Positions 46,607 through 64,000 of a stretch of DNA of 64,000 nucleotides are shown piece after piece. The translations under genes and the position numbers were made by a program. The stretch covers positions 32,001 to 96,000 of the forward strand of contig CAWBZV010000014.1 in assembly GCA_963793305.1 (NCBI GenBank), written 5' to 3'. Source of the stretch: an uncultured Gemmatimonadales bacterium. GTDB lineage: Bacteria > Gemmatimonadota > Gemmatimonadetes > Gemmatimonadales > Gemmatimonadaceae. Within the stretch, counting starts at the first letter, position 1, and each line of letters starts with the position of its first letter. The notes below the pieces were generated by a model, which saw only the letters and a list, made by a program, of their open reading frames with translations, ran no database searches and had not been told where the DNA came from.

Positions 46607-47016
46607 CATCACCGACCGTGAAGAAAGCCAAGTCGATGTCGAAGAAGCAGCTCGGGCACTTCGAGAAGCGGCTGTTGGAGGAGCGGAAGCGCGTCCTCAA
46701 GGAGCTCGGCAATTACAGCGAAGCTTTCGGCGCGACCATGCAGAATTCCGATGGCGACTTGAGCTCATATTCCTTCCATATGGCGGATCAAGGGACCGAC
46801 GCCATGGAACGCGAGAAGGCGTTTCTGTTCGCGAGCCAAGAGGGGCGCTTTCTGTGGCATATTGATGAGGCGCTTCGTCGCCTGTACCGTTCGCCGGAGA
46901 CGTTCGGCAAATGTCATCAGTGCGGGGAAGAGATAGCGTTCGAGCGGTTGGATGCCCTGCCGCATGCTAGGTTTTGCTTCTCCTGCAAGCAGCGCGAGGA
47001 AGATGGAAAGAAATAG
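46603..47016 (+). CDS. TraR/DksA C4 zinc-finger protein
   Basis: HMADQGTD, CHQC...ERLDALP..FCFSC. Confidence 0.92.
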   Translation: MTSPTVKKAKSMSKKQLGHFEKRLLEERKRVLKELGNYSEAFGATMQNSDGDLSSYSFHMADQGTDAMEREKAFLFASQEGRFLWHIDEALRRLYRSPETFGKCHQCGEEIAFERLDALPHARFCFSCKQREEDGKK

Positions 47017-47534
47017 TACCAACGCCAGAGTCTTCTGGGGCGTCTTGATCACCGTCGTCTTGCTGGACGTGGTGACCAAGCAGATGGCGGTGACCCAGCT
47101 CATGCCGAGACAGCTCCCCCACGAGGTGTTGGGAGACGCGATCCGGTTTACGCTCGTATTCAACGAAGGGGCGGCCTTTGGCCTCAAGTTCGGGCCGCTC
47201 TCGAGGTGGATTTTCCTCGGGGCCACGCTCGTGGCGTTGGTGATACTGGGGCGGCTGTACCGGGCGACCAAGGCCGGGGACGTGCTGCGGACGCTGGCGC
47301 TCGGGCTCGTGTGCGGCGGTGCGGTCGGCAATCTCATTGACCGCATCCGGTCGCCCATGGGCGTCGTGGACTTCATCGAACGTCGGGCTCCGCGAGCACC
47401 GGTGGCCGACGTTCAATGTCGCTGACATGGCCGTGAGCACGGGGGCCATTTTGCTCGCGTGGGTCCTGTGGAGCGAGGACCGTCACCACGCGACTCCGGT
47501 GAGCGCACCGAGCGAGACGCGCGAGGTGTCGTGA
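47003..47534 (+). CDS. lspA: lipoprotein signal peptidase II (one +1 frameshift at ~47380)
   Basis: DVVTK, NEGAAFG, GNLIDR; corrected VVDFIDVG...WPTFNVAD. Confidence 0.93.
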
Positions 47535-48493
47535 GCGGCGCCGGCGACGCCGGCGCCCGCTACGAGTTTGTCGTCCCACCCGATTCGGCCGCCCGCCTCG
47601 ACCTCGCGATCGTTGCGGCGACCGGGTTGTCCCGCAACCAGGCGGCGACGCTGATCGCCACCGGACAGGTTACCATCGACGGTCGCCGCGAGAGGGCGAG
47701 TTTCCGACCCCTCCCCGGAGCGCGGATCGTGGTCGACCTCCCTCCGGCGCCCGACCACCCGCTGGTGGCCGAGGACATCCCACTCTCGATCGTCTACGAG
47801 GACGAGTCGCTCCTCGTCGTCGATAAGGCCGCGGGGATGGTCGTTCACCCTGCGCCTGGGAATTGGAGCGGCACGCTGGTCAACGCCCTGCTCGGTCGCG
47901 GCGCCGCGCATTTGGTGCATCGCCTCGATAAAGAAACGTCCGGGCTTCTCGTCGTCGCCAAGAGCGAAAAAGTGCAGCGGCAGCTGCAGAGCGCATTGGC
48001 GGCGAGACAGCTGAAACGTTTGTATGCGGCGCTCAGCTGGGGACATCTGACAAGTGACCACATCACGGTCGACAAACCAGTTGGCCGCGATCCCCGAGAC
48101 CGAAAGCGGATGGCGATCGTCACTACAGGTCGACCGGCGAGGACAGACTTCGCCCGGTTGGCGCGCTACGACTCGGTGGACCTCCTCCGAGCCCGGTTGC
48201 ACACGGGACGCACGCATCAAATTCGCGTGCACCTCGCGTCGATTGGGCACCCGGTGGTGGGCGATGACACGTACGGCGGCGGTGGCGGACGGCGCGTGGT
48301 GGCGCTCCCTCCGCATCGACACTTTCTGCACGCCGCGTGGCTTCGCTTCCGTCACCCGATCACGGGCGCCGACATGGACCTGAGATCGCCGCTGCCAGAC
48401 GATCTGCTTCGATCACTGGCCGCCGTTTCGTACGAGGACACCGGGCTGGACGATGTTGGCTTCTACCGAATCGAACCCGACGACAGTCGATGA
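47531..48493 (+). CDS. rluD: RluA/RluD-family pseudouridine synthase
   Basis: S4-like RLD, KAAGMVVHP, HRLDKETSG, TGRTHQIRVH. Confidence 0.92.
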   Translation: MSGAGDAGARYEFVVPPDSAARLDLAIVAATGLSRNQAATLIATGQVTIDGRRERASFRPLPGARIVVDLPPAPDHPLVAEDIPLSIVYEDESLLVVDKAAGMVVHPAPGNWSGTLVNALLGRGAAHLVHRLDKETSGLLVVAKSEKVQRQLQSALAARQLKRLYAALSWGHLTSDHITVDKPVGRDPRDRKRMAIVTTGRPARTDFARLARYDSVDLLRARLHTGRTHQIRVHLASIGHPVVGDDTYGGGGGRRVVALPPHRHFLHAAWLRFRHPITGADMDLRSPLPDDLLRSLAAVSYEDTGLDDVGFYRIEPDDSR

Positions 48494-48938
48494 GCAGTAC
48501 GCGAGCACCGCGGACGCGCCACGGTTATTGCTGTTCGGCGTGGGCGGGCGACTCTGCGCCTGTGAGCTGGACGCTATTCGCGAAATCGTTCCCTATCGAC
48601 AAGCCACGCGACTGCCCGGCGCGCCGCCGTTCGTCACGGGCCTGATCAATCTGCGGGGATCGATTCTGACGGTGATGGACCTGGGTCTCAGACTCGGGGG
48701 ATCACCCATTGATCCCACGCGGGGATCGATTGTGCTGGCGGAGGCGGGACCGCGCGTCATTGGCCTCGGCGTCGATGAGCTCCGAGACGTGCAACGCGTT
48801 CCGCGAACGCAGATCGAACCGGCCGACGGCGAGATCGGCTCGGGGGTGGTGAGCGGCGTGCTCCAAGTGGGGGAGGACGTCGCGATGTTGCTCGACGTGC
48901 GGGCGATCATCAAGCAAATCTTCGGGGGAAATCTGTGA
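48453..48938 (+). CDS. cheW: chemotaxis adaptor CheW
   Basis: TRLPGAPPFVTGLINLRGSIL, IGLGVD. Confidence 0.92.
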   Translation: MLASTESNPTTVDEQYASTADAPRLLLFGVGGRLCACELDAIREIVPYRQATRLPGAPPFVTGLINLRGSILTVMDLGLRLGGSPIDPTRGSIVLAEAGPRVIGLGVDELRDVQRVPRTQIEPADGEIGSGVVSGVLQVGEDVAMLLDVRAIIKQIFGGNL

Positions 48939-49297
48939 GTCACTCAGTGCTGATCTGCGATGACGCGATCTTCATGCGGACGATGGTCGGCGACATCCTG
49001 ACCCAAGCCGGATTCGAGGTCGTCGGCGAGGCCGAGACGGGCCTGCAGGCGGTCGAGAAGTACAAGCAGCTGCGACCCGACCTCGTCACGATGGACATCG
49101 TGATGCCGGACATGGGTGGGATCGACGCGGTCCGCGAGATCACGAAGTTCGACGCCAACGCCAAGATCCTCATGTGCAGCGCGATGGGCCAGCAAGCGCT
49201 CGTCGTCGAGGCGATCCAGGCGGGCGCGAAAGACTTCGTCGTCAAACCTTTCCAGCCCAGCCGCGTGCTGGAAGCCGTCCAACGCGTCCTCGGCTAG
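48935..49297 (+). CDS. cheY: response regulator CheY
   Basis: ICDDAIFMR, TMDIVMP, CSAMGQ, FVVKPF. Confidence 0.95.
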   Translation: MSHSVLICDDAIFMRTMVGDILTQAGFEVVGEAETGLQAVEKYKQLRPDLVTMDIVMPDMGGIDAVREITKFDANAKILMCSAMGQQALVVEAIQAGAKDFVVKPFQPSRVLEAVQRVLG

Positions 49298-49303
49298 CTC
49301 CTC

Positions 49304-51253
49304 GTGGACACGTCGCGGTACGCCGAGCTCTTTCTCACCGAGAGCCGTGAGCATTTATCAGCCATCAACCACGCGCTGCTCGAAATGGAGCAGAACGGGG
49401 GGACGGCCGATACCGTAGGCGCATTGTTCCGCGCCGTGCACACGGTCAAGGGCATGAGCGCGACGATGGGGTACCACGACGTTGCTGATCTGTCGCACGA
49501 GTTGGAGACCCTGCTCGAGCGGTGTCGCCGGGGCGAGCTCGCGGTGACATCCCCACTGATGGATGTGTTGTTCAAGGCGGCCGACACCCTCGAATCGGCC
49601 ATCGAGAACGCCGTCGCTGACGGGCCTCCAGTCAAGATCGCCAAGATTATCGAGCGGTTGAAATCGATCAGCACCGAGACCACCAACGGTGGCTCGGCTC
49701 CGCGTCGCACGTCCGGCAAGGCCGCGCGCCAGCGCGCCGCGAAGAAGGCTGCGACGCCCTTATCCGTGCCGACGGTCGGCGCCGATCCCGGCACGATCGT
49801 CAAGGTCACGCTCGTCCCCGATACGCCGCTGCCCGGCGTACGCGCGGTGATGGTACTGAACAAGATCCGATCGCTCGGCAAGGTCGTCGCTGTCGATCCC
49901 CCAGAAGACGACTTGGCACACGACGGGTTCAACGGTTGCTTTACGTGCACGATGATCGGGGCGGCGCTCGCGCCCGAGATCGAGGACGCGATTCGCTCCG
50001 TGGGCGACGTTGACACCGTTCAGATCACGGGCGCGCCCGTCCTGGCCGCGCGCCGCGGCACAACGGTCCTCCAAGCCGTGGGCAACGAAGAGACCGGGGT
50101 CAAGCAGCAGCGCCATGTGCGCATCGATCTGCGCCGGCTCGATTCTCTCATGAATCTGATCGGCGAGTTGGTCATCACGCGCGGACGGTTGTTCGAGATC
50201 GGGCGCTCTCTGGCGGATCCGGCGCTCGACGACTCGCTCGCTCAGGCCTCGCGGCTCATCGGCGACCTCCAGGACGAGATCATGACCTGCCGCATGGTCC
50301 CCGTCTGGCAGGTCTTTGACCGGTTCCCACGTCTCGTTCGCGATGCCGCCCGTACGCTCGGAAAGGACGTCACGCTGGAGATCGAGGGCAAAGAGATCGA
50401 GCTCGATCGCTCGATGCTCGACGAGATCGGCGATCCGATCGTGCACTTGCTGCGCAATGCCGTCGATCATGGCATCGAGACGCCCGACGAGCGGGCCAAG
50501 CAGGGCAAGCCGGTCATCGGCCGCCTGACGCTGAGCGCGGCGCGCGATCGCTCGAACGTCCTGATAAGAGTCTCGGACGATGGGCGGGGGATCGATCGCG
50601 GGAAGGTGCTGAGAAAAGCCCAAGAGACGGGACTGATCGACCCGGCGACTGTGGAGCTCACCGACGAAGAGCTGATGCGGCTCATCTCCAAACCGGGATT
50701 CAGCACGGCGGAAGCCGTGACCGAGATCTCCGGACGGGGTGTGGGTATCGACGCGGTGCAGAATCGCGTCCGAGCCCTTGGCGGATCCGTCGATATCAGA
50801 ACCGCGCCGGGGCGCGGGACGACCGTCACGGCCAGGTTGCCCCTCACGCTGGCGATCATGCGAGCCCTGCTCGCGCGCGTCGCCAATGAAGTGTATGCGA
50901 TTCCGATGGCGCACGTGCGCGAGACGATCTCGCTCGACGGCGCAAATGTGTCGACGCTGCAGGGGAAACCCGTGCTGCTGCTGCGCGAGGTCGTCATGCC
51001 ACTCGTACGCCTGCGTGACGTGGTTGGGCTGCCGGGACGAGTGATCGAAGCGGGCGAGGACGCCGAGCAAGCCATCGTCGTCGAGCTGGCTGATAAAGAA
51101 GTCGCGGTCGTTGTCGACCAACTCCCGGGTCAGCAGGAGATCGTGGTGAAGCAGTTCGATGGGGTGCGCGGTGGCCTGAATCTGTTCACCGGTGCGACGA
51201 TCCTCGGCGACGGCGCGCCCGCCTTGATCGTCGATGTGAGCAGTCTTTTCTGA
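49304..51253 (+). CDS. cheA: histidine kinase CheA
   Basis: FRAVHTVKG (Hpt), HLLRNAVDHGIE, DDGRG, SGRGVG, CheW domain. Confidence 0.97.
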   Translation: MDTSRYAELFLTESREHLSAINHALLEMEQNGGTADTVGALFRAVHTVKGMSATMGYHDVADLSHELETLLERCRRGELAVTSPLMDVLFKAADTLESAIENAVADGPPVKIAKIIERLKSISTETTNGGSAPRRTSGKAARQRAAKKAATPLSVPTVGADPGTIVKVTLVPDTPLPGVRAVMVLNKIRSLGKVVAVDPPEDDLAHDGFNGCFTCTMIGAALAPEIEDAIRSVGDVDTVQITGAPVLAARRGTTVLQAVGNEETGVKQQRHVRIDLRRLDSLMNLIGELVITRGRLFEIGRSLADPALDDSLAQASRLIGDLQDEIMTCRMVPVWQVFDRFPRLVRDAARTLGKDVTLEIEGKEIELDRSMLDEIGDPIVHLLRNAVDHGIETPDERAKQGKPVIGRLTLSAARDRSNVLIRVSDDGRGIDRGKVLRKAQETGLIDPATVELTDEELMRLISKPGFSTAEAVTEISGRGVGIDAVQNRVRALGGSVDIRTAPGRGTTVTARLPLTLAIMRALLARVANEVYAIPMAHVRETISLDGANVSTLQGKPVLLLREVVMPLVRLRDVVGLPGRVIEAGEDAEQAIVVELADKEVAVVVDQLPGQQEIVVKQFDGVRGGLNLFTGATILGDGAPALIVDVSSLF

Positions 51254-51262
51254 GGCCCTGAA

Positions 51263-51883
51263 ATGGAAGACATTCGCTCGTTGAAGGCGATTCAACTCGA
51301 CGCGTTGCGCGAAGTCGCGAACATCGGCGCCGGCCATGCGGCCACCGCCCTGTCGCAGATGACCGGCAACACGATCATGATCAGCGTGCCGACGATCAAT
51401 ATCGCGCGGCTCGAGGACGTGCCACCGCAGATCTCCGGCCCGGAAGAGCCGGTGGCCGCGGTGCTCATGAACATGCTCGGCGACCTCACCGGTCGCACGT
51501 TGTTGGTCTTTCCCCGACCAACGGCGCTCCGGCTGTCCGACCTGATGCTCAATCGACCCGGGAACAACGGCGGCGATCTCGGGGAGTTGGAGCAATCGGC
51601 GATTAAAGAGTGCGGCAACATCCTGAGCGGCGCGTACATGAACGCCCTGAGCGATTTTATGGGCCTCATGCTGCTGCCGTCGCCGCCCAGCCTGGCCGTG
51701 GACATGTCCAGTGCGGTGCTGACGACGGCGTATCTGCAGTTCGGAACCGATCGCGACTACGTGTTCTGCGTCGAGAGCGAATTCCACATGCAGGACTTCA
51801 ACGAACGGCTGCGCGGGTTCTTCCTCCTCCTGCCGGACGTGGCCTCGCTGCATGCCATTCTGCGCGCCGTCAAGGTCGCGTAG
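51263..51883 (+). CDS. cheC: CheY-P phosphatase CheC
   Basis: DALREVANIG and SAIKECGNIL (two ExxN sites). Confidence 0.93.
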   Translation: MEDIRSLKAIQLDALREVANIGAGHAATALSQMTGNTIMISVPTINIARLEDVPPQISGPEEPVAAVLMNMLGDLTGRTLLVFPRPTALRLSDLMLNRPGNNGGDLGELEQSAIKECGNILSGAYMNALSDFMGLMLLPSPPSLAVDMSSAVLTTAYLQFGTDRDYVFCVESEFHMQDFNERLRGFFLLLPDVASLHAILRAVKVA

Positions 51884-51891
51884 GCGCGGGT

Positions 51892-54585
51892 ATGGACGTG
51901 GGCGCGCCCCCACTGATGTCCGAGCGGGACCGCGAGGTCCTGCGCTCGTTCGCGCGCCGCATTGATCCCTCGGACGCCGGGGCCCACAACAACCTCGGCG
52001 TTCTCTACTATCACAAAGGCTTGCACGAGGAGGCCGTCGAGGCCTTCACGCGCGCCCTCGAGCTCGACGGGAAAATGCAGGTTGCCCAGCGCAATCTGGA
52101 GATCGCGTACTTCTCGACCGGATACTACGAGCGCCGGGTCGGCGAGCTCCGCGAGCGCCTGCGCGTCACGCCCGCGGACCGCGAGGCGCGGTGGGAGCTG
52201 GGGCGCGCGTATGCGCTGCTCGGCCGCTCGAGCGAGGCGGTCAACGAATTCAACGAGTTGCTGCGCTACCATCCTGACGATCTCGGGGCAGTCGTCCAAC
52301 TCGGACTGGCCGAGAAAGCCTCGGGCGACCTCGAAACGGCGCAACAGTGGTTTGAACGGGCTCGGGACCTCGATCCGGCGAGCTCGGTCATCCATTTCTA
52401 CGTCGGCGAGGTCCTCTACAACCGCGGGCTGAACGACGAAGCCCTGGCGGCGCTCAACAAGGCCATCGAGCGGAATCCCGATAACCCGGACGCCCACTAT
52501 TTGATGGGCTTCGTGCTCGGCGACATGGGCCGACACGACGAGGCGCGCGAGGCGACGAAGCGGGCCATTCGCTTGAACCCGACGCTGTCACGGGCCCAGG
52601 CGAATCTGACACTGGACGGCGGTCCCCGCCGCATCTCGGCGCCGATGGCGGTCGCCGAAGAGGGTCAGCTCGCGCACTATAATTTGGGCTTGGCGTTCCG
52701 GCAGAAGGGGTACTATGTCGAGGCGCTGCGAGAGTACCAGCTGGCGCTCGACCGCGGCGAGGACGCGCCGCTCGTTCAGCAGGCGATGGCGGAAGTCCAC
52801 CTGCTGCGCAAGGACGTCGCGGCGGCGGTCGCCACCTACGACCAGCTGCTGAACCTCCAGCCCGAGAGCCCGAAGCTGTGGAACGAGCGCGGCGTCGCGC
52901 TCCATCAGCACGGGAAGTACACCGAGGCGGCCGAGTGCTATCAAAAAGCGCTCGACGCGGATCCGCGCTACGCGCTGGCCGCGAACAACCTCGGCGTCGC
53001 CCGGTTCCACGGTGGCGAGAACGAGGGGGCCGTCACGGCGTTCGAGACCGCGCTCGACATCGCCCCCACGTTCGTCAAAGCGCGCCTGAATTTCGCGCTG
53101 CTGCTAATGAAGGGGAAGCGCCTGCAGCAGAGTCTCGAAGCCTACCGTCAGGTGCTCCTCCACGCGCCCGAGAACGCCGTCGCCTGGAACGGCGTGGGCC
53201 TGGTGCTCACCGAGTTGCGCAAGTTCGAGGACGCGCGCAATGCCTTTGCGCGGGCGACGCAAAGCCGGCCGAATTACGCCGAGGCGCACTATAACCTGAG
53301 CTTTGCGCTGTCCAATCTCGGCGACTTCGACAGTGCGCTGCGCGAGACGAAGCGGGCCCTGGAGCTCGATCCGTATTACGTGCCGCAGAAGTTCGAGCTG
53401 ACCATCGATCTCCAGTATGAGGATCCGGATCTCTCGATCGTTCCGGATTTGGGGGGAGCACGACAGACCTCGGCACCCATTGAAGAGTTCGCGTTCGATG
53501 CCACCGTGTTGGATTCGCTGTTCACGGAGCTGACGCCACCGGCCGCTGCATTGGCGATGGCCACCGAGGCGCCGTTGGCGAACCCTTACGCGATGGCGGC
53601 CGACTATCTGTCGAAGGGTCTCTATGATAGGGCCACGGCCGAGGTGAGCCGGGCCTTGCTGAGAGGGGGAGATCGGGCCGACGGCATGGCGCTGCTCGGC
53701 GATGTCTTCGTGCATCAAGGACTGCATGGCGAAGCGCTGGAGCGTTACCGGGACGCACGCCGGGTGCAGGGTGTGCATTTGCGGGCCATGATGGGCGAGG
53801 TCAAAGCGCTCCTCGCCTTAGGCCGGACCAAAGATGCCCGACCGGTTGCCGAAGACCTGCTCGGAGCGGCGCCCGAAGATGTCGATACGCTTCTCCTGGC
53901 GGCGACGGCCAGAGCAGCGACCGGAGATCTGGACGCCGCGCTCGCCGCGCTGGCCCTCGCCAGACGGGCCGCCCCGCAACGAGCCGACGTCGCGCAGAAA
54001 ATCGGCGACGTGCGAAAAGTCGCCGGAGACCGAAGCGGCGCCAGAGCGTCGTACTATGAGGCGCTGGCACTCGACGGAGACCTGGCGGTCGTCCGGTTCG
54101 AGCTGGCGAGGTTGCTCGTGGGCGACGGCCATGAGACCGACGCCGAGGCCGAGCTGCTGGCGGCGTTGGACGCGGTGCCGACCTATGTCGACGCCTCGCT
54201 GGAGCTGGCGCAGCTCTGGCGTCGGACGGGGAAAAAGGAAGCCGCCATGCGGGTCGTCATCGAGTTGTTGGAACGCGATATGACGCTGACGCCGGCGCTC
54301 CTGGCGTTGGGCGAGCTCTTGTTCGAGCTGGGGCGACGAAAGGACGCGGCGTTGGCGTTCGCGCGGTTGCGGCGCATGGAACCCGCGCACCCGGCCGCGC
54401 TCTACTACGAGGGGGCGTTGTTCGCCGAGCAGCACCGATTCCGGGAAGCCATCGAGCGCTGGGAGAAAGTCGTGGAGATCGAACCGGATGGCCCGTACGG
54501 CCGGCGCGCGCGTCGCGACGGGCGCACCGCCGCGGACCTGGCCAAGATCTTCACCAACGGCGCGCGCGCCAACGGGAGGCATTAG
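51892..54585 (+). CDS. large TPR-repeat protein
   Basis: Many canonical TPRs (AHNNLG, AHYLMG, AHYNL); about 897 aa. Confidence 0.9.
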   Translation: MDVGAPPLMSERDREVLRSFARRIDPSDAGAHNNLGVLYYHKGLHEEAVEAFTRALELDGKMQVAQRNLEIAYFSTGYYERRVGELRERLRVTPADREARWELGRAYALLGRSSEAVNEFNELLRYHPDDLGAVVQLGLAEKASGDLETAQQWFERARDLDPASSVIHFYVGEVLYNRGLNDEALAALNKAIERNPDNPDAHYLMGFVLGDMGRHDEAREATKRAIRLNPTLSRAQANLTLDGGPRRISAPMAVAEEGQLAHYNLGLAFRQKGYYVEALREYQLALDRGEDAPLVQQAMAEVHLLRKDVAAAVATYDQLLNLQPESPKLWNERGVALHQHGKYTEAAECYQKALDADPRYALAANNLGVARFHGGENEGAVTAFETALDIAPTFVKARLNFALLLMKGKRLQQSLEAYRQVLLHAPENAVAWNGVGLVLTELRKFEDARNAFARATQSRPNYAEAHYNLSFALSNLGDFDSALRETKRALELDPYYVPQKFELTIDLQYEDPDLSIVPDLGGARQTSAPIEEFAFDATVLDSLFTELTPPAAALAMATEAPLANPYAMAADYLSKGLYDRATAEVSRALLRGGDRADGMALLGDVFVHQGLHGEALERYRDARRVQGVHLRAMMGEVKALLALGRTKDARPVAEDLLGAAPEDVDTLLLAATARAATGDLDAALAALALARRAAPQRADVAQKIGDVRKVAGDRSGARASYYEALALDGDLAVVRFELARLLVGDGHETDAEAELLAALDAVPTYVDASLELAQLWRRTGKKEAAMRVVIELLERDMTLTPALLALGELLFELGRRKDAALAFARLRRMEPAHPAALYYEGALFAEQHRFREAIERWEKVVEIEPDGPYGRRARRDGRTAADLAKIFTNGARANGRH

Positions 54586-54588
54586 GCC

Positions 54589-55741
54589 ATGGCGATCGAA
54601 GGACCGCTGCGCGAGCTGAGCATACACGATGTCTTCCAGCTGCTGGATCTGAGCCGGAAGACCGGCGCGTTGCGCGTCACGTCGGTGCTCCGCGACAACG
54701 AAGGCACGGTGCTGTTCGATCGCGGCCGCGTCATCTCGGCCAGCATCCGGTCGAGCCCGAACCCGCTCGGCGCGGTCCTCGTCCGGGCCGGCCGCATCAC
54801 CGAGCGCGATCTGGAGCGCGCCCGGAAGGTGCAGCAGGAGAATGGCGCGACGAAGCGATTGGGCGAGATCCTGCTCCAGATCGGAGCGATCTCGGCCCGC
54901 GAGCTGGAGCGCCAGGTGCGTTTACAGATCGAGACGGTCGTGTTCGAGCTCATGTCGTGGCGCGAAGGGTTCTTCTCGTTCGAGGAGCGCGATGTCGGCC
55001 ATGCGCAACTCGAGGCGGCGGTCCACGTGTCGACCGAGTCGCTCCTCATGGAGGGGGCGCGCCGCATCGACGAGTGGAGCCGGATCGCCGACAAGGTGCC
55101 GCACCTGGGCGTGATCCCGATCCTCGCGGCGGTGAACGAGTTGCACGCGACGCAGCTCGATCTGCTGCCGAACGAGTGGGAAGTGTTGGCGATCATCGAC
55201 GGTGCGAACGACCTGCACGGCATCGCGGCCGCGCTCGGCCGGTCCGAGTTCGAACGTCGCGAAAGTCGTGTACGGCTTGCTCACGACCGGCGTGGTGGAG
55301 CTGCGCGGCGGCAGGGGCACGCCCGTCGCGGTGCAGGCGACCGCGGCGCCCGACCCGGCGCGGTACCTGACGCTCGCGGAGGCGGCGCTGGCCGACGGGC
55401 TGTACGACGAAGCGCTCAATTCGGCGCGCTCGGCGATCGCCGCCGATCCGCGCGCGCCCGCGGCGCGCCTCATGGCGGCGCGAGCCTTGCGAAAGCTCAA
55501 GCGGCATGCGGAAGCGGCCGACGAGTTGCGTCGGGCGGCCGAGGCCGACCCGAAGCATCCGCATATCCAGCTGGAGCTCGGACTGGCGGCGCTCTGTCAG
55601 GGCGATTTCCGCGGCGCCGTGCACATCTGGCGGCAATACCTGGAGGCCGCCCCCGAGGAGGCCGAAGCGACCGAAGTCCGCGAAGCCGTCGATTCGGCTG
55701 CGCGACTCGATCGATTTGTCGAGAGCTATGTCGGTGTCTGA
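54589..55741 (+). CDS. DUF4388-like + TPR protein (one +1 frameshift at ~55254)
   Basis: AIEGPLRELSIHDVFQLL..KTGAL, RLGEIL, WREGFFSF, LLMEGARRIDEW; corrected SEFDVAK matches paralog SEFDVGK. Confidence 0.85.
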
Positions 55742-56645
55742 CGATATCCGCCGTTGGAGCGATGAGCTGGCGCGCAGTCCCGCCAGCATGGTCTTCTTGC
55801 CTTTGGGCGAGGCCCTGCGCACGCGCGGGCAGATCGACGTCGCGCTGCGCGTCGCGTTGCGCGGGCTCGAGCGCCATCCGTACGACGCCGACGCGCACGA
55901 CCTGCTCGCGCGCATCTACGCCGATCGCGGCGAGACCGAGCGGGCGCTCGACGAATGGGATGCGGCCATCCGCTGTACGCCCGGGCACGCTGGCGCCCTC
56001 AAGGGCATGGGCTTCGTCTGCTTCAACCAGGGCCGCATCGTGGACGCCGAGCGGTATCTCGCCGAGGCAGCAGCCGCGAGTCCGGAAGACGACGGGCTCG
56101 CGATGGCGCTCGAGCGCGTCCGCGCTGCGGCTACTCCGCCTGACCCTGAGCCCGTGGCTGCACCGGCGCCCGAGCCGGAACCCGAACCCACACCTGTCGC
56201 CAACGGCAACGGCCACGGCCCGACGAATGGCGACGTGCGGGCCGAGCCAACGCTCGCCGAAGGCGACGCGCACTTTGGCGATCCACGACAGCTCTTTGCT
56301 GATCTCATTGGCGTGGCGGACCAAGCCGCGCTGCTGCTGGATGAGGACGGCCTGGTGATGGCGGGCCAGTACGTGGTCTCCGATGGCATGGACGTCGGAG
56401 CCGAAGTGGGCGCTGCCCTGAGCGGCATCAGCGACGAGGCGAGGCGCGCCATGCGGCATCTCCCGCTCGGCGACTGGCGCACGATCATCTTCGAGACGCC
56501 CGCCGCAACCGTCGTGATGACACCGGCCCCGCAGGATGGCCTGGTGCTCGTCGCGGCCGCGCCCGAAGTGCCGTCAGGCCTCGTGCGTCGCGCCCTCGAG
56601 AGCGTATCCCAGCGCGCGAAACGCTGGATGGAGCAGCTCTCATGA
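55728..56645 (+). CDS. TPR + roadblock/LC7 domain protein
   Basis: N-terminal TPRs, PEP linker, C-terminal ALLLDEDGLVMAG roadblock-like domain. Confidence 0.8.
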   Translation: MSVSDDIRRWSDELARSPASMVFLPLGEALRTRGQIDVALRVALRGLERHPYDADAHDLLARIYADRGETERALDEWDAAIRCTPGHAGALKGMGFVCFNQGRIVDAERYLAEAAAASPEDDGLAMALERVRAAATPPDPEPVAAPAPEPEPEPTPVANGNGHGPTNGDVRAEPTLAEGDAHFGDPRQLFADLIGVADQAALLLDEDGLVMAGQYVVSDGMDVGAEVGAALSGISDEARRAMRHLPLGDWRTIIFETPAATVVMTPAPQDGLVLVAAAPEVPSGLVRRALESVSQRAKRWMEQLS

Positions 56646-56998
56646 GCTCGAGCTCGCCGTTCATTCCCTCGCTCGAACACCTGACACGCCAGCGCGGCGT
56701 GCTCGGCAGCCTCGTGGTGAGCGAGACCGATGGCATCGTCATCGATGCCGTGGTACAACCGAGCGTCAAGGCACCAGTCGTCGCGGCGCTCGCCGCGTCG
56801 CTCTATCGGCGCGCCCGGCAGTCGGCGCACGCCGCGGGACTCGGGGGTGTGAGGTACTTGGAGCTGGTGGCCGACGGCGGCCGGCTCTGTATGGCCGGGC
56901 GCGATGATCTCGTGGTCGTCCTGGTGACCGATACCCGCGTCGGGGTGGGACTGCTGCGCGTCGAGTTACTTCGAACCGCCGCGGAGTTGCCCGAGTGA
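56642..56998 (+). CDS. roadblock/LC7 domain protein
   Basis: GVLGSLVVSETDGIVI, VAALAA, GLLR. Confidence 0.85.
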   Translation: MSSSSPFIPSLEHLTRQRGVLGSLVVSETDGIVIDAVVQPSVKAPVVAALAASLYRRARQSAHAAGLGGVRYLELVADGGRLCMAGRDDLVVVLVTDTRVGVGLLRVELLRTAAELPE

Positions 56999-57465
56999 GC
57001 CTCGCCGTCGTCGAGCGCTGGGTCGAGGCGCCGCTCAGGCGATTCGTCGAGGACGCGCAAGCCGTGCTCGCGCTCTTGCTGACGCCCAGTGGTCAGGTGC
57101 TGGCCCAGCACGGGTTCACGCGCGCGGTCGACGTCATGTCGGCGTGCGCGCTGGCGGCGGCCATCCATGCATCGTCGACCGAGCTCGGACGACAGTTGCA
57201 GGGCCGGCCCTTCGCGGGCCTGCATCACGCGGGCCGCCGGCGGCAGCTCTTCCTGGCGCGCGCGGATACCCCGCGCGGGCCGTACGTGTTCTTGACCGTG
57301 TTCGACCAGGCGAGCTCGCTCGGCCTGGTGCAACTCTACTACGATGAGTTCACGGCGCGCTTGGGCGATGCCGCGCCACCGAAATCGAATGATACGACCG
57401 AGATCCTGGCGGAGAACTTCGAGTCGGAGTTGGATCGCAACCTGAAGCTCTTGTTTAGCCGATAA
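56995..57465 (+). CDS. mglB: MglB-like roadblock protein (putative MglA GAP)
   Basis: LLTPSGQVLAQHG, ACALAA, VFDQASSLGLV, acidic C-terminal helix; directly upstream of mglA. Confidence 0.78.
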   Translation: MSLAVVERWVEAPLRRFVEDAQAVLALLLTPSGQVLAQHGFTRAVDVMSACALAAAIHASSTELGRQLQGRPFAGLHHAGRRRQLFLARADTPRGPYVFLTVFDQASSLGLVQLYYDEFTARLGDAAPPKSNDTTEILAENFESELDRNLKLLFSR

Positions 57466-58070
57466 TGTCGCTCGTCAACTATTCCACCCGCGAGATCACG
57501 TGCAAGATCGTCTACTACGGCCCAGGGCGGTCGGGGAAGACGTTGAATTTGCACTACATCTACGGGCAGGTGCCGAGCGATCGCAAAGGCAAGATGGTCT
57601 CGTTGGCGACCCAAACCGACCGCACCCTGTTCTTCGATTTCCTGCCATTGGACCTGGGCTCGATCTCCGGGTTCACCACCAAGATCCAGCTCTATACGGT
57701 CCCTGGGCAGATCTACTATCAGACCACCCGCCGGCTCGTGCTCCAGGGCGCCGATGGCGTCGTCTTCGTCGCCGACAGCCAGAGTCGGCAACTGGAAGAG
57801 AACATCGAGAGCTTGCAGGACCTGCACGCGAATCTGGAAGAACAAGGGGTCGACCCCCGCGGCGTTCCGCTGGTGCTGCAGTACAACAAGCAGGACTTGC
57901 CGCGCGATCTGATTCTGGACGAAGCCACGCTCGATGACGCGCTGAACTTCAGGGGCGTTCCCCATTTTGCCGCCGATGCGCTGCATGGCGCCGGCGTATT
58001 CGAAACCCTCCGTGGCATCTCGGAGCTGGTGCTCAAGCGATTGAGCTCGCCCAACGGGGCGCGACGCTGA
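57465..58070 (+). CDS. mglA: Ras-like GTPase MglA
   Basis: REITCKIVYYGPGRSGKT, TDRTLFFDFLPL, YTVPGQ, QYNKQDL. Confidence 0.95.
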   Translation: MSLVNYSTREITCKIVYYGPGRSGKTLNLHYIYGQVPSDRKGKMVSLATQTDRTLFFDFLPLDLGSISGFTTKIQLYTVPGQIYYQTTRRLVLQGADGVVFVADSQSRQLEENIESLQDLHANLEEQGVDPRGVPLVLQYNKQDLPRDLILDEATLDDALNFRGVPHFAADALHGAGVFETLRGISELVLKRLSSPNGARR

Positions 58071-58071
58071 A

Positions 58072-59956
58072 ATGGCGAACAATCGCTATCGGTTCGACAA
58101 CTTCATCGTCGGCTCGGCCAATCGCTTAGCCGTGGCGGCCGCGCGCGCGGTCGCCGAGTCGCCCGGGAGTGCCTACAACCCCCTGTTCATCTATGCCGGA
58201 TCAGGGCTCGGCAAGACGCATCTCATGGGCGCGATCGCCCATCACGCCGCGTCAGTCCAACCGGCACTTAAACTCGATTACCTGTCGCTCGACGAGTTCG
58301 TGCGCCAGTTGCATGCGGCGGTATCGATAGGACAGGCCGAGAATTTTCGGCAACGATATCAGCATGTCGACCTGCTGCTCCTCGATGACGTGCAGTTTTT
58401 GACCGGACGCCGAGAGACGCAGAGCGAGATGCTGCGCCTGTTCAACGCCCTGCAGGGCGCCGGCCGCCAGATCGTCATGACGAGCGACCGGCCGCCGTCC
58501 GACATCGCCGATGTCGACGAACGGCTGCTCAACCGGCTGGCGGGTGGCCTCATTGTCGACATCGGCGCGCCCGACTACGAGACGCGGGTCGCGATCCTCA
58601 GGAGCAAATGCGAGGAGCGCGAGGTGCGATTCGCGACCGGCGTCATCGAAGCGCTGGCCAAGATGACGTTCGGGAATGTCCGTGAGCTGCAAGGCGCGCT
58701 CAATCGCCTGATCGCCCATCAGACGCTGGAGGAAGGCGATCTCACCGCCGACGATGTCGCGATGCTGCTCGGTGGCACGACCGCGACCCGGAGCACCGTC
58801 GAACGCGATAACAGCGGCGAATACCTGGCCTTTCTCACTGGCGTGCAGCGCGTCGTCTCCGAGAACGCGTGGCGGGTCCGGCTCGGCGAAGGCATCGCGT
58901 ACTGGCGCGGCGAAGGCTACCGCACGGGTCCACTCGATCGGCTCTTCGAGGGGCGTGTCGAGCCGGACGTTCGAGCGCGTCCTCACGGACTTCTCGACAT
59001 TGATCGACCGGTTGCGGGCACTGGAGGCCGAAGCGACCACCGTCGACGCATCGCTCGGCGGCGCTGATGTGTTCCGCGATCCGGATCGCCTGTCTCAGGC
59101 CGAGGCGCTGGTGGTGAAGGCGCAAGCGGGCGAGGTCGCACCGGACGGGCCGTCGCCCGCGTTTACGCGTGACGAGTACGAGGTCGGCGCCGCGAACCAG
59201 CTCGCGGTGCGCGCGGCCGATGCCATCATCGCCGATCCCGGGCGGCGCTACAACCCCTACTTCATCCATGGGCCGAGTGGCGTCGGCAAGACCCACTTGA
59301 TGCACGCGATCGGGAATGGGATTGCGGGATCGACGTGCCTCGGGGCGCAGCAGTTCGTGGACAGCCTGATCGCTGCGCTGCAAGAAGGCACGGTCGAACG
59401 CTGGCGTGCCCGGTTCCGCGCTGCCGGCGCATTGCTCATCGATGACGTGCACTTTCTCGCCGGCAAAGAGCGGACGCAAGAAGAATTGTTTCACGTGTTC
59501 AACGACATGTACGACCAAGGCAAACAAGTCGTGCTGTCGAGCGACCGTCCGCCGAAAGAATTGGAGGACCTGGAAGAGCGTTTGCGATCCCGGTTCGAGG
59601 GCGGATTGGTCGTCGCCATTCAGCCGCCCGATCGTGGCCTCCGTGAGAAGTTGTACGCTCGTTTCCTGGCGAGGGCCGATATCGAGCCGGAGCCGGCGCT
59701 CGTCATGTATCTCGCGGACCGCCCCGTGGCGAGCGTGCGAGAGATTGCCGGAACGATTCAGCGGCTCATGGCGACGGCCGAAGTCGCCGGTGCGGCGGTG
59801 TCCCTCGATCTCGCGCAAAACGAGCTCGATGGCCCGGGCTCCGCGCGCGTGCCGGCGCCGAAGGAGATGGCGGTCGACGCGTTCTTCCTCGATGACGAGA
59901 AAGTCATCTGGGACTGGCCGGAGATGAGCGGCCGCGTCATCGAGGAGTGGCGCTAA
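58072..59956 (+). CDS. tandem DnaA/Hda-type AAA+ protein lacking DNA-binding domain IV (one +1 frameshift at ~58971)
   Basis: Two DnaA domain III copies: YNPLFIYAGSGLGKTHL..LLDDVQFL and YNPYFIHGPSGVGKTHL..LIDDVHFL..RLRSRFEGGL; 627 aa after correction. Confidence 0.88.
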
Positions 59957-59957
59957 G

Positions 59958-61574
59958 ATGGCCATCAAAGGCAGCCTCAAAGAGGCCAGTCTGCCGGACG
60001 TGCTCCAGCTGCTTGCCATGGGCAAGAAGACGGGGTGCCTCAGCGTCACGCATCGGAACAACTTCGGCTACATCTACTTCGAGAAAGGGCGCATTGCGTA
60101 TGCGTCCATTGTCAATCGGCGCGACCGCCTCGGCGATCTGCTGATCAAGGCCGGTTTGATCACCCGTGACCAGGTGGACGAAGCGATCGGATCCCAGCCC
60201 GGCTACAAAGACAAGCGTCTCGGCGACATTCTCGTGGCCCAGGGCCTGGTCTCGCGCGACGAGCTGCACGCGCAGATACGGGTGCAGATTCAGGAAGCCG
60301 TCTATTTCCTGTTCACGTGGTCGCAAGGCTCGTTCAACTTCGAGGCGGACATCCGCCCCGAAGAGCTGGACTTTGTGGTGTCGATCAACCCCGAATCCCT
60401 GCTCCTGGAAGGCGCGCGGCGGGTCGACGAGTGGGGATTGATCAGCAAGAAGATTCCGAGCTTCGATCTCGTGTTCGAGATCGATCGCGATCGACTCAAG
60501 CAGAGTGACGTCACGCTCACGCACCAGCAGGAAGTGCTGCTCGATTCCATCGACGGCAAGCACGACGTGACCGCGCTGGTCGATGCGAGCGGACTCAGTG
60601 AATTCGACGTTGGCAAGGCGTTGTTCGCGCTCCTGTCGGCGGGCTTCCTGCATCGCGTGGGGACCAGCAAGGCCGAGCCGATGGTCTCCGACGCGCGCGT
60701 CGAAGAGCACCGGAACCTCGGCATCGCGTTCTACAAAACCGGCATGTTCGAAGAGGCCGTCCGCGAGTTTCGGCGGGTCTCCGAGTGTCGGCCCGCCGAT
60801 CAGGGCGCGCCGTTCTATCTCGGTCTGGTCCTGATGCGCCAGGGGAAATGGCCGGCGGCCGCCGACGTCTACCGCGGCGCCGCGCAGACCCTTGGGGCCA
60901 AGCCGGCGGTGTTTTGCAACCTGGCGTACATCCTGGAGCGTCTCGGTGAGTACGACGAGGCGCGCGCGGCACTCGACGAGGCCGTCAAACGCGGCGCGGG
61001 GAATTTGCCGCAAGTGCGCACCTCGTACGGCGCCCTGGCGCTCCGTGGCGGAGATATCGCGGAGGCGGACGCGGTCCTCTCTGCCGCTCGCCCGCTGTGG
61101 GGCAAGAGGCCACCACCACCCGCGTGGTTCCACTACGCCGGATTGGCGGCGGCGTTGGCGGGAGATCTCGACCGGGCCACGGAGCTCCTGACCGAAGGAA
61201 CGGCGCTGCACCCGCATGCCGCGGCGCTGTTCAATAATCTGGCCGCGGTCGCGGAACGACGCGGGGGCTGGGCCGACGCCGCGATGTTCATTGAGCGCGG
61301 CACGGCCGAGGATCCGGCGTTGCCGCAGCTGCACAAGAACTCAGGCGACTATGCGTACCGCTCGGGACAGTATGACGAAGCGCTCGACGCGTATCAGCGT
61401 GCGACGCGACTCAACCCCGCGCTGGGCGACGATGTCTTCTTCAAGATCGGCAATATTCGCTATCGACGACGCGAGACGGCCGAGGCCGTGAAGTGTTGGG
61501 AACGCGCGCTGGAGCTCGAGCCGGCGAATGCGATCATACGGAGTAATCTGGACGCGGTCCGGCGGGCGGGATGA
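59958..61574 (+). CDS. DUF4388-like + TPR protein
   Basis: AIKGSLKEASLPDVLQLL..KTGCL, RLGDLL/RLGDIL, WSQGSFNF, LLLEGARRVDEW, C-terminal TPRs. Confidence 0.88.
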   Translation: MAIKGSLKEASLPDVLQLLAMGKKTGCLSVTHRNNFGYIYFEKGRIAYASIVNRRDRLGDLLIKAGLITRDQVDEAIGSQPGYKDKRLGDILVAQGLVSRDELHAQIRVQIQEAVYFLFTWSQGSFNFEADIRPEELDFVVSINPESLLLEGARRVDEWGLISKKIPSFDLVFEIDRDRLKQSDVTLTHQQEVLLDSIDGKHDVTALVDASGLSEFDVGKALFALLSAGFLHRVGTSKAEPMVSDARVEEHRNLGIAFYKTGMFEEAVREFRRVSECRPADQGAPFYLGLVLMRQGKWPAAADVYRGAAQTLGAKPAVFCNLAYILERLGEYDEARAALDEAVKRGAGNLPQVRTSYGALALRGGDIAEADAVLSAARPLWGKRPPPPAWFHYAGLAAALAGDLDRATELLTEGTALHPHAAALFNNLAAVAERRGGWADAAMFIERGTAEDPALPQLHKNSGDYAYRSGQYDEALDAYQRATRLNPALGDDVFFKIGNIRYRRRETAEAVKCWERALELEPANAIIRSNLDAVRRAG

Positions 61575-62374
61575 GCGACGAAGGCGAATTTCAGCAGCTG
61601 CTGTCGAAGATCGCGACCGAGCGCCAGTTCCACTGCCAGCACTACAAAGAGAAGTGCTTGCGGCGGCGCATCGGCGTCCGTCTGCGCGCGCGCGGCCTGC
61701 ACAGCTACTCGGATTACGCGCGGCTCCTGGACGGGGACGCGCGGGAGTACGAGAAGCTGCTCGATACGCTGACCATCAACGTCACCAAGCTCTTTCGGAA
61801 TTGGGAGACGTGGGAGGCGATGGCGGCCCACGTGGTTCCGGCGATCTGGGGGGAGCCTCGCAATGTGCACATCTGGAGCGCCGGGTGCTCATCGGGCGAA
61901 GAGGCGTATTCGCTGGCCGTCCTCATGCATCGCCACGCCAGCGCGATGCACGAATCACATCGGTTGAATCGCGTGGATATTCTGGGGACCGACATCGACC
62001 GCGAGAGTTTGACGGCCGCCGCGAAGGGGCTGTTCGATGACGATGCCTTCACCGATACGCCGGCCGAGATCAGAACCGCCTATTTCAGTCCGACGCAGCC
62101 GGCGACCGTGCGAGCCGACGCGAAACAGCTCGTCCGGTTTGAAAAGCGAGACCTGATCCGCGGCGACGCGCCCAAGGGCCTGCACCTGATCGCGTGCCGC
62201 AACGTGATCATCTATTTCGATCGCGTCACGCAGGAGCAGTTGTTCGTCCGGTTCCACGACGCGCTCGAGCCCGGCGGCTTTCTCGTGCTGGGCAAAGTCG
62301 AAACCCTGCTCGGCGCCACGCGCTCGTTGTTCGAGCCAGTGGACGCGCGCGAGCGCATCTTCCGCCGCCGGTGA
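61571..62374 (+). CDS. cheR: chemotaxis methyltransferase CheR
   Basis: LTINVTKLFR, IWSAGCSSGEEAYS, GTDID, CRNVIIYFD. Confidence 0.95.
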   Translation: MSDEGEFQQLLSKIATERQFHCQHYKEKCLRRRIGVRLRARGLHSYSDYARLLDGDAREYEKLLDTLTINVTKLFRNWETWEAMAAHVVPAIWGEPRNVHIWSAGCSSGEEAYSLAVLMHRHASAMHESHRLNRVDILGTDIDRESLTAAAKGLFDDDAFTDTPAEIRTAYFSPTQPATVRADAKQLVRFEKRDLIRGDAPKGLHLIACRNVIIYFDRVTQEQLFVRFHDALEPGGFLVLGKVETLLGATRSLFEPVDARERIFRRR

Positions 62375-62853
62375 ACGAGCACATTCGCGTCAAGGTCGCC
62401 GACTACGCCGTGGCCCGCGGCGATGCGATCATCGCCACCATCGGCCTCGGGTCGTGCGTCGCGATCACGGTCTACGACAACACCGCGCGCGTCGGTGGAT
62501 TGGCGCACATCCTGTTGCCGACCGAAGGCATGTCGCGCGATACACACAATCGCGCCAAGTTCCCGGGCTCGGCCGTCCCGCTCCTGCTCGAGGAGATGCG
62601 GAAGCTCGGCGCGAAAGGGCCCTTTCAGGCCAAGCTCGTCGGTGGGTCGAGCATGTTCGCGTCCCTCTTGCCACAGGGCGGCGTGAATATGGGTGACCGC
62701 AATGTCGATGCGTGCCGGCGCGCGCTGGGTCAAGCACAGATCTCGTTGATCGCGCAGGACACCGGTGGCACGTACGGCCGCAGCGTGTTCCTGCACATCC
62801 GCGATGGTCGCGTCATCGTTCGCTCGCTGGCGCACGGCGAGAAGATATTGTGA
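62371..62853 (+). CDS. cheD: chemoreceptor glutamine deamidase CheD
   Basis: TIGLGSCVAI, LAHILLP, KLVGGSSMF, DTGGTYGR. Confidence 0.94.
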   Translation: MNEHIRVKVADYAVARGDAIIATIGLGSCVAITVYDNTARVGGLAHILLPTEGMSRDTHNRAKFPGSAVPLLLEEMRKLGAKGPFQAKLVGGSSMFASLLPQGGVNMGDRNVDACRRALGQAQISLIAQDTGGTYGRSVFLHIRDGRVIVRSLAHGEKIL

Positions 62854-63917
62854 GCAACGTGAAGAGCGTCCTCGTAGTCGATGACAGCGCGTTCATGAGA
62901 AAAGTGGTCAGCGAGCTCGTGTCCGCGTCCAACGAGTTTCGCGTCATCGGGACGGCGCGCAACGGCTATGACGCGCTGAAGCAGATTCACACGCTCGAGC
63001 CGGACATCGTCACGATGGACATCGAGATGCCGGAGCTCGATGGCATCCAAGCGCTCGGATATATCATGTCCGAGACGCCGCGGCCGGTCGTGATGCTGAG
63101 CGGGGCCGAGACCGACGACTCGCGCGACCACACCATTCGCGCGTTGGAGCTCGGCGCCGTTGACTTTGTGCGCAAACCGTCCGGTCCCGTGTCGCTCGAC
63201 TTGCCGACCGTACGGGAACAGTTGTTGGCCGCGTTGCGCGCCGCCGCGTGCGTCAATTTGCGCGGTGTCGATGTCCTCGCACGCCCACGACAGTCGGGCA
63301 CGTGGCGGGTACCCGAACGAACGGGCGGAGCGACGAGGGTGGTTGTCATTGCCGCATCGACCGGGGGGCCCCGAGCGCTGGCCGAGGTCATCCCAAATTT
63401 GACCCCCACGATCGATGCCGCCGTACTGGTCGTGCAGCACATGCCCGGTGGATTTACGGCGAGCCTTGCCCAGAGACTCAACGACATGAGCCCCCTCAGG
63501 GTCGTCGAGGCCAAGGACGGGGATCGAATTGTCCACAATCGTGTGTATTTAGCCCCGGGGGGGTATCACATGCGCGTAGCGATACGGGACGGGTTGCCTA
63601 CGCTCACGTTAGATACCGCCGCCCCGATTTGGGGGGTGCGACCGGCGGCTGACCCGTTGTTTCGGTCGGCGGCCCAGATTTTCGGGCCATCCGTGGTTGG
63701 CGTCGTCCTGACTGGCATGGGGCGCGACGGCGCCGAAGGGCTCCGGACGATCCGAGACGCCGGGGGGCAGGGCGTCGTCCAAGATCAGATGACCTCTACG
63801 ATCTACGGTATGCCCCAGGCGGCGCTGGTGACCGCTGGAGCGGACCGTGTGGCGTCGCTTGTCGACGTGGCGCCCGCGGTCGCTGATCTCCTGGCCGCAG
63901 GCGGACGGGCGTCGTGA
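62850..63917 (+). CDS. cheB: chemotaxis methylesterase CheB
   Basis: REC (VVDDSAFMR) plus ASTGGP, VQHMP, LTGMGRDGA, YGMP. Confidence 0.96.
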   Translation: MSNVKSVLVVDDSAFMRKVVSELVSASNEFRVIGTARNGYDALKQIHTLEPDIVTMDIEMPELDGIQALGYIMSETPRPVVMLSGAETDDSRDHTIRALELGAVDFVRKPSGPVSLDLPTVREQLLAALRAAACVNLRGVDVLARPRQSGTWRVPERTGGATRVVVIAASTGGPRALAEVIPNLTPTIDAAVLVVQHMPGGFTASLAQRLNDMSPLRVVEAKDGDRIVHNRVYLAPGGYHMRVAIRDGLPTLTLDTAAPIWGVRPAADPLFRSAAQIFGPSVVGVVLTGMGRDGAEGLRTIRDAGGQGVVQDQMTSTIYGMPQAALVTAGADRVASLVDVAPAVADLLAAGGRAS

Positions 63918-64000
63918 GCGCGACGCTGGTGCCGACGACCGCGTATCAGCTCGCCGATGCGCAAGGCGTGCGCGAAGCCGCACGCCGGCGCGTGGGCGTC
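63914..64000 (+). CDS. start of next operon gene (truncated by window edge)
   Basis: GTG overlapping cheB stop; open frame MSATLVPTTAYQLADAQGVREAARRRVGV. Confidence 0.4.
   Translation, partial: MSATLVPTTAYQLADAQGVREAARRRVGV

Follow-up and report, generated by a model that had tools for sequence, protein, structure and literature searches.

A chemosensory cluster of Gemmatimonadota with a second MglA, PATAN-TPR proteins and a tandem DnaA-like ATPase

Gene content of the locus

Gemmatimonadota are common in soils. The window considered here is a whole stretch of 64,000 nucleotides from an uncultured Gemmatimonadales bacterium of the family Gemmatimonadaceae (assembly GCA_963793305.1, contig CAWBZV010000014.1, positions 32,001 to 96,000), whose genome is 92% complete. 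Between 48453 and 63917 it carries a chemosensory (che) gene cluster that encloses a block encoding an MglA-type GTPase, roadblock proteins, TPR proteins with a DUF4388 domain, and a tandem DnaA-like ATPase. DUF4388 is also called PATAN (PMC12448109). All genes of this run lie on the plus strand, separated by gaps of −41 to +32 bases, and their order and identity are backed by Pfam, which bears out the named genes and the tight, one-strand coupling described in the initial annotation. The features are as follows.

48453..48938, plus: cheW, the first of three (PF01584, E 4e-34)
48935..49297, plus: cheY of the Thermotoga/Bacillus/archaeal type (best PDB match 1TMY, E 8e-52)
49304..51253, plus: cheA, Hpt-P2-dimer-HATPase-CheW (Pfam and PDB match; only CheA detected in the genome)
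51263..51883, plus: cheC phosphatase (Pfam; two D/S-x3-E-x2-N motifs conserved)
51916..54585, plus: 889-residue all-TPR protein, SgmX-like by architecture only (start set from the alignment of relatives)
54589..55741, plus: DUF4388 (PATAN)-TPR protein A (degenerate MshEN-like insert; one-base frameshift near 55254)
55728..56645, plus: TPR-roadblock fusion (Pfam)
56642..56998, plus: stand-alone roadblock/LC7 protein (PF03259, E 2e-6)
56995..57465, plus: MglB-like roadblock protein (30% identity to the canonical MglB of the genome)
57465..58070, plus: MglA paralogue (E 4e-72 to Myxococcus xanthus MglA)
58072..59956, plus: tandem DnaA-like AAA+ ATPase (two Bac_DnaA domains; one-base frameshift near 58970)
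58816..58857, plus: conserved helix motif opening the ATPase linker, retained in mini-protein remnants
59876..59953, plus: tail motif at the C-terminus of the ATPase, with predicted docking in the TPR groove of protein B
59958..61574, plus: DUF4388 (PATAN)-MshEN-TPR protein B, the proposed hub (NF053729 48.5 bits, cut-off 38; MshEN-like motif at about 60126-60287)
61571..62374, plus: cheR (Pfam)
62371..62853, plus: cheD (Pfam)
62850..63917, plus: cheB (Pfam)
63914..64000 (window end), plus: 5′ part of the second cheW, which continues beyond the window

The initial annotation closed the operon at cheB. The gene set it placed inside is correct, but the end is not, since the second and third cheW, a gene for a 288-residue TPR protein and a HExxH peptidase-like gene follow in that order past the window, before a tRNA-Val gene. 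Promoter and terminator scans of the cluster gave counts at the level of shuffled sequence (2 versus 1.8; 9 versus 9.3) and so say nothing on co-transcription.

Conservation and modularity

The cluster is real, widely conserved and modular in Gemmatimonadota. From a phylum sample of 121 genomes the 77 best-scoring mglA positions were taken and 5 weaker matches (56-59% identity) dropped; of these 77 orthologues, 65 have a same-strand cheA 4.5-6.3 kb upstream, six lie near contig starts and six have no linked cheA. The run from cheW-Y-A-C through mglA is retained in 18 of 20 relatives from three families, and 17 of the 20 have the tandem ATPase as well. These synteny comparisons bear directly on the proposal that the inner block is conserved together with the che genes, and they uphold it. 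Of the loci found through the 288-residue TPR protein, 78 of 80 are named Gemmatimonadota, and atlas searches likewise ranked clusters of this phylum at the top, with nothing further gained. The cluster is present in four genomes from other orders of the class, while no mglA was detected at E≤1e-63 in 15 genomes of other classes, and four cheA loci fetched from other-class genomes have a different layout. Within the family, a match to the hub (protein B) was obtained in 156 of 161 genomes and to the ATPase linker in 140 of 161; these tallies include the unpublished genome G012, on which alone no claim depends. A literature search found no description of this cluster, and supplementary table S2 of PMC4316618, which lay outside that search, may list the neighbourhood. 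The text of that paper credits Gemmatimonadetes with group 1 MglA and occasional PATAN neighbours (PMC4316618).

Natural deletion variants reveal which parts persist. Over the 43 loci that span rluD plus one downstream marker, the hub is retained in 42, mglA in 37, cheA in 33 and the ATPase modules in 30-31, values to be read as patterns rather than frequencies, as the reduced loci were partly selected for looking reduced. The exception without the hub, L138, has one other DUF4388 gene. The complete loci L105-L107 contain the entire inner block and zero che genes; L103 has the inner block without che genes, but a contig end cuts this locus, and L104 has only cheW, cheY and fragments of the che set. 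Conversely, L109 holds cheW-Y-A-C, cheR and cheB with the hub and a remnant of the ATPase but no MglA block, and L127-L129 keep the che core while mglA and the roadblock genes are gone. Little beyond mglA and the hub is left in L022 and L137, so the hub persists next to che genes without mglA (L109) as well as next to mglA without che genes. The “hard-wired” pathway from chemosensing to polarity that was first suggested is therefore too strong a term, because some lineages drop all che genes (L105-L107) and others the MglA block (L109, L127-L129).

The 288-residue TPR protein (L001:2874-3737) has an N-terminal helical region and a median identity of 68% in relatives, above most cluster genes; it is a candidate partner of CheY or MglA and is missing from several reduced loci. 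The overlapping HExxH peptidase-like gene (Peptidase_MA_2, L001:3599-4744) encodes an apparent signal peptide and a C-terminal membrane segment and is retained even in L138.

A Thermotoga-type chemosensory core in a genome without flagellar matches

The most conserved gene of the cluster is cheY, with a median identity over 18 relatives of 88% for CheY against 49% for CheA. Among solved structures, CheY matches 1TMY best and CheA matches 3JA6/1B3Q best, with 6S1K ranking behind; 1TMY and 3JA6/1B3Q are Thermotoga-type structures. A CheA with a P2 domain, a stand-alone CheY, CheC and CheD are all encoded, the combination that we assume to mark the F1 (Bacillus/Thermotoga-type) class, and D/S-x3-E-x2-N is presumably the CheC signature. 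This agrees with the class that the initial annotation had read from the pairing of CheC with CheD.

The single CheA detected in the source genome is the one inside the cluster. The window itself holds no receptor gene, as had been noted, and a search beyond it found 12 receptor matches elsewhere in the genome. Their tip-to-end lengths are 151-152 residues in four of the 12, 166-182 in five, 117-122 in two and 374 in one, and three look frameshifted; the mapping of such lengths to heptad classes, and with it the 44H question, follows a correspondence that we assume.

FliM, FliG and FlhA gave no match in the source genome (92% complete), and no FliM or FliM-N-like motif for CheY was found, so a flagellar output was ruled out for this genome, in line with the non-flagellar system expected from the window. 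FliG is absent from 50 of the 65 genomes with linked mglA and cheA. A single CheA locus was found in at least 35 of these 50, whereas 12 of the 15 FliG-positive genomes have a further CheA, in 7 of the 12 within 45 kb of fliG. The source genome has genes for pilMNO and a secretin, eight pilus/secretion-type ATPase matches and 8 GGDEF matches.

A second MglA and its roadblock proteins

A canonical mglB-mglA pair lies elsewhere in the source genome (L123), at dnaX-ybaB-recR, making the mglB and mglA of the cluster paralogues. The context of dnaX, DUF149/ybaB and recR is that described for deltaproteobacterial mglBA (PMC3983030). The cluster protein belongs to the MglA family: its P-loop, switch Arg, TVPGQ Gln and NKxD motif are intact and an MglB-like gene is adjacent. 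The switch motifs of the cluster MglA are lost in L110-L112 and L136, and L110-L112 also have no cheR, cheD or cheB and yet have cheA and cheY.

The proposed PATAN-MshEN-TPR hub and its predicted partner

The hub consists of DUF4388, MshEN and TPR regions without a receiver domain, and its structure model has a predicted local distance difference test score (pLDDT) of 94.8. Two RLG-type motifs in tandem identify its MshEN region, with an NF053729 score above the cut-off, while the degenerate insert of protein A scores 35.3 bits, below it. These motifs make the hub a likely sensor of cyclic di-GMP (c-di-GMP). The MshEN insert and the ATPase go together in the 100 loci with a scorable hub: all 88 loci that have an ATPase module carry the insert, 79 of them with at least two motifs, and among the 12 loci without a module it is cleanly deleted in seven, degenerate in three and intact in two. 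In a quick, weakly supported RluD tree built from 44 loci, the MshEN deletions fall in two or more places.

In 8 of the 12 loci without ATPase modules an open reading frame of 60-73 residues just upstream of the hub combines the helix that opens the ATPase linker with the C-terminal tail; L127 and L130 retain the linker and a divergent tail. Several genera do without both modules and yet keep the tail. Relatives of the L109 remnant make up 40 clusters (60-66 residues, 71-98% identity), and it represents a conserved protein family. Complex prediction of this remnant with the L109 hub gave a score of 0.82, against 0.01 for the best control, with runs agreeing in at least 97% of contacts and a partner pLDDT of at least 76. 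Of solved pairs, 116 of 157 attain the mark set for this score, as do 2 of 215 mismatched ones; with the analysis's own alignments these counts apply only approximately. The tail (residues 33-60) is placed in the TPR groove of the hub and the helix motif makes no confident contact, and we accordingly speak of a predicted binding of the ATPase tail to this groove.

The tandem DnaA-like ATPase

The ATPase comprises two domain-III modules, a helical linker and a C-terminal tail. Its model (pLDDT 87, predicted template modelling score 0.51) matches domain III of Bacillus subtilis DnaA with a root mean square deviation of 1.7 Å. Neither DnaA_N (domain I) nor Bac_DnaA_C (domain IV) was matched in the protein, unlike the genome's own DnaA, whose canonical dnaA-dnaN locus is intact. 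Across 62 sequences the Walker motifs, arginine finger and sensor II are kept in both modules, and the tail is strongly conserved (Glu 62/62, Trp 58/62 and 59/62, Arg 61/62). Module 2 retains the equivalents of B. subtilis DnaA R202 (61/62), R206 (59/62), I190 (53/62), K222 (50/62) and E228 (62/62), and differs at E183, N187 and N196 in an alignment read by eye; module 1 is without I190, R202 and R206. In B. subtilis DnaA, R202, E228, I190 and K222 contact single-stranded DNA (ssDNA; PMC10721633), and their retention in module 2 leaves room for a DNA- or DnaA-binding role. The protein shares the domain III fold and the catalytic and oligomer residues with DnaA and Hda, from which it differs by two modules in one chain, the lack of domain IV, a linker related to an archaeal repeat and the predicted docking tail.

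The relation of the linker to a repeat comes from a profile search, in which 19 of the best 150 matches are long proteins; 18 of these consist of copies of a similar repeat, about 108 residues long. The long repeat proteins (the set includes P0109, P0126, P0159, P0181, P0074 and P0090) reach 96-155 bits, whereas their shuffled or reversed versions stay at 6 or below. In four of them a DnaA-type ATPase domain forms the C-terminal end, with zinc ribbons in three of the four, and two other repeat-protein clusters are named Thermoplasmata, one with DUF835. A likeness of their N-terminal domain to PATAN was rejected, with an hhalign probability of 0.17%, below the 1.7% of a reversed control, and no Pfam hit. 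Of two metagenome scans for the context of these proteins, one was empty and the other yielded DnaA-domain matches and nothing else: none of its 80 loci had a linker, roadblock, MglA or PATAN gene nearby.

Elsewhere in the source genome, away from dnaA-dnaN, a third DnaA-like ATPase gene (L146:5424-6017; G000:C3, about 469.4 kb), apparently frameshifted, stands beside a Ku gene.

Flanking genes and assembly quality

Upstream of the cluster, at 41047-48493, lie a yggS-like gene, divIVA and genes for a purine nucleoside phosphorylase, ileS, a dksA-type zinc finger, lspA and rluD, with cdaA before them. We take a block of this yggS-divIVA-ileS-lspA type to be Firmicute-like; here it occurs in a diderm, with the division and cell wall (dcw) cluster on the other side of the che cluster. 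Downstream, the tRNA-Val gene is followed by one more TPR gene, which encodes a signal peptide and was not counted as a cluster member, and then by the rsmH-ftsI-mur (dcw) genes.

One extra base each interrupts the genes for protein A and the tandem ATPase. Both are a single frame in a same-genus genome, where protein A has 383 residues, and the full tandem ATPase is in one frame at 62 of 102 examined loci and split at 2 of 102. In the same assembly rsmH is split and murE truncated. The two frameshifts are likely assembly errors, because rsmH and murE are also broken and the frames are whole in relatives; a pseudogene reading of both genes was set aside on the same grounds. Further apparent frameshifts, at L001:6648-7777 (rsmH, murE) and in three receptor genes (C2:404309, C5:1441826, C12:196447), likewise point to assembly indel errors.

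Proposed mechanism and alternatives

We favour a reading, at about even chances of being correct, in which a non-flagellar Thermotoga-type che pathway and a second MglA/roadblock switch converge on the PATAN-MshEN-TPR hub, with polar type IV pili as the output. Receptors encoded elsewhere would signal through CheW and CheA to CheY, with CheC, CheR, CheB and CheD resetting the pathway. From CheY or MglA onward, we infer each step. Phosphorylated CheY, with no FliM to bind, would act on one of the cluster's TPR or PATAN proteins, and MglA-GTP, confined by a roadblock GTPase-activating protein, would mark the pole. The hub would hold the tandem ATPase by its tail. The ATPase itself probably assembles in an ATP-dependent manner into a DnaA-like oligomer and thereby clusters or positions the hub, and c-di-GMP may gate this step through the MshEN insert. 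The hub would then set the pole for type IV pilus work, with its PATAN domain probably contacting PilB/PilC on the cyanobacterial model. As for the output, pili or polarity, we infer it by analogy: PATAN binds PilB1 and PilC in Synechocystis (10.1101/2021.06.11.447907) and, in the account of PMC7668184, MglA has the TPR protein SgmX as its effector in the control of pili.

Besides the selection of reduced loci, several observations weigh against this reading. The che half and the MglA half are each separately losable, and the canonical mglBA elsewhere in the genome could by itself serve motility. PilM occurs in 114 of the 121 phylum genomes, with or without the cluster; being near-universal it does not discriminate and lends no specific support to a pilus output. 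Three FliG-positive genomes show only the cluster CheA (E≤1e-40), so the relation between FliG and further CheA proteins is no strict rule. The correlation of MshEN with the ATPase perhaps rests on two independent deletions. The docking was folded with the L109 remnant instead of the full ATPase of the window, a peptide in a TPR groove is a common binding mode, and the predicted contacts exceed other TPR positions in conservation only by a small margin (0.71 versus 0.62, permutation p 0.053).

The favoured pilus reading competes with one in which polarity and c-di-GMP cues control replication initiation or asymmetric division, the ATPase co-assembling with DnaA or binding an ssDNA origin at one pole. 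The ssDNA-contact residues of module 2 and the Walker motifs, arginine finger and sensor II of both modules are consistent with it, as is the position of the cluster between divIVA-ileS-lspA-rluD and the dcw genes. Budding division in Gemmatimonas would also fit, though a literature check gave no confirmation of it. We nevertheless regard cell-cycle coupling as unlikely, considering that the ATPase has neither domain I nor domain IV, that module 1 lost I190, R202 and R206 and module 2 differs at E183, N187 and N196, that several genera have dispensed with both modules but not with the tail, that the linker was not found in 21 of the 161 family genomes, and that the canonical dnaA-dnaN is intact.

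Alternatively, the cluster might serve surface sensing in the manner of M. xanthus Dif, with CheY a phosphate sink reset by CheC, CheA acting by way of an orphan regulator on exopolysaccharide, adhesion or c-di-GMP, and the MglA block localising the complex. Dif presumably has the same gene order as here and presumably belongs to the F1 class. Both systems have a CheW-CheY-CheA-CheC core (DifC/D/E/G; PMC4671073), a non-flagellar role and a piliated cell, known here from genes, and the c-di-GMP motif of the hub would fit such an output. Unlike Dif, this operon contains no receptor, and cheR, cheB and cheD lie within it together with the MglA/PATAN/ATPase block; moreover, the identity of 88% for CheY against 49% for CheA fits a constrained effector better than a sink, and a Dif-like function seems to us rather unlikely. 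That the che operon and the MglA/PATAN/ATPase block are two independent modules sharing a transcript with no functional coupling is improbable, for although either half survives alone in different lineages, in several orders the genes of the two halves are interleaved and their stop and start codons overlap, the che-only L109 keeps the hub and the remnant, and neither FliM nor a FliM-N-like motif turned up as a target for CheY.

Among other known systems, the closest comparison is the M. xanthus polarity module of MglA, MglB and MglC-RomR with Frz and SgmX, which resembles the cluster in an MglA-type GTPase beside an MglB-like gene, extra roadblock proteins, large TPR proteins, che genes and type IVa pilus genes in the genome. 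The tandem DnaA-like ATPase and the PATAN-MshEN hubs set the cluster apart from it. According to PMC4316618, mglA of M. xanthus is not near the genes of its partners, whereas here a second mglA lies inside a CheC/CheD-type operon and the canonical mglBA at dnaX-recR. The actinobacterial conservons CvnABCD also unite genes for a kinase, a roadblock protein and a small GTPase in a single operon (PMC4316618), but here the kinase is a CheA accompanied by a full adaptation system, and the GTPase is a Myxococcus-type MglA. Cyanobacterial PatA-type regulators of the Tax/Pil systems likewise place a PATAN domain in a chemosensory cluster; here PATAN is joined to an MshEN-like insert and TPR instead of a receiver, and the che core is Thermotoga-type. 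Two parallels were dropped: a position of sofG near the M. xanthus dif genes could not be confirmed, and SopA, considered as a possible carrier of DUF4388/MshEN domains, is without known domains.

Implications

Most of the sampled Gemmatimonadota genomes are without a flagellar match, hence the interest in what their chemosensory systems control. The cluster gathers into one operon candidates for the link between a chemosensory kinase and MglA that are scattered over the genome in Myxococcus, and the natural deletion variants rank its parts and point to one contact, that of a tail of about 25 residues in a TPR groove. A bolder proposal, which we hold doubtful, is that an initiator AAA+ domain was co-opted as a polymerising, c-di-GMP-gated scaffold docked on the PATAN-TPR hub, joining chemosensory and Ras-like signals and linking polarity to replication or asymmetric division through module 2 across much of the class; the repeat-plus-DnaA proteins, taken with it and just as tentatively, would hint at a wider, undescribed signalling use of DnaA folds. 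If a DnaA-derived double ATPase does work in signalling, the initiator fold would have a new role.

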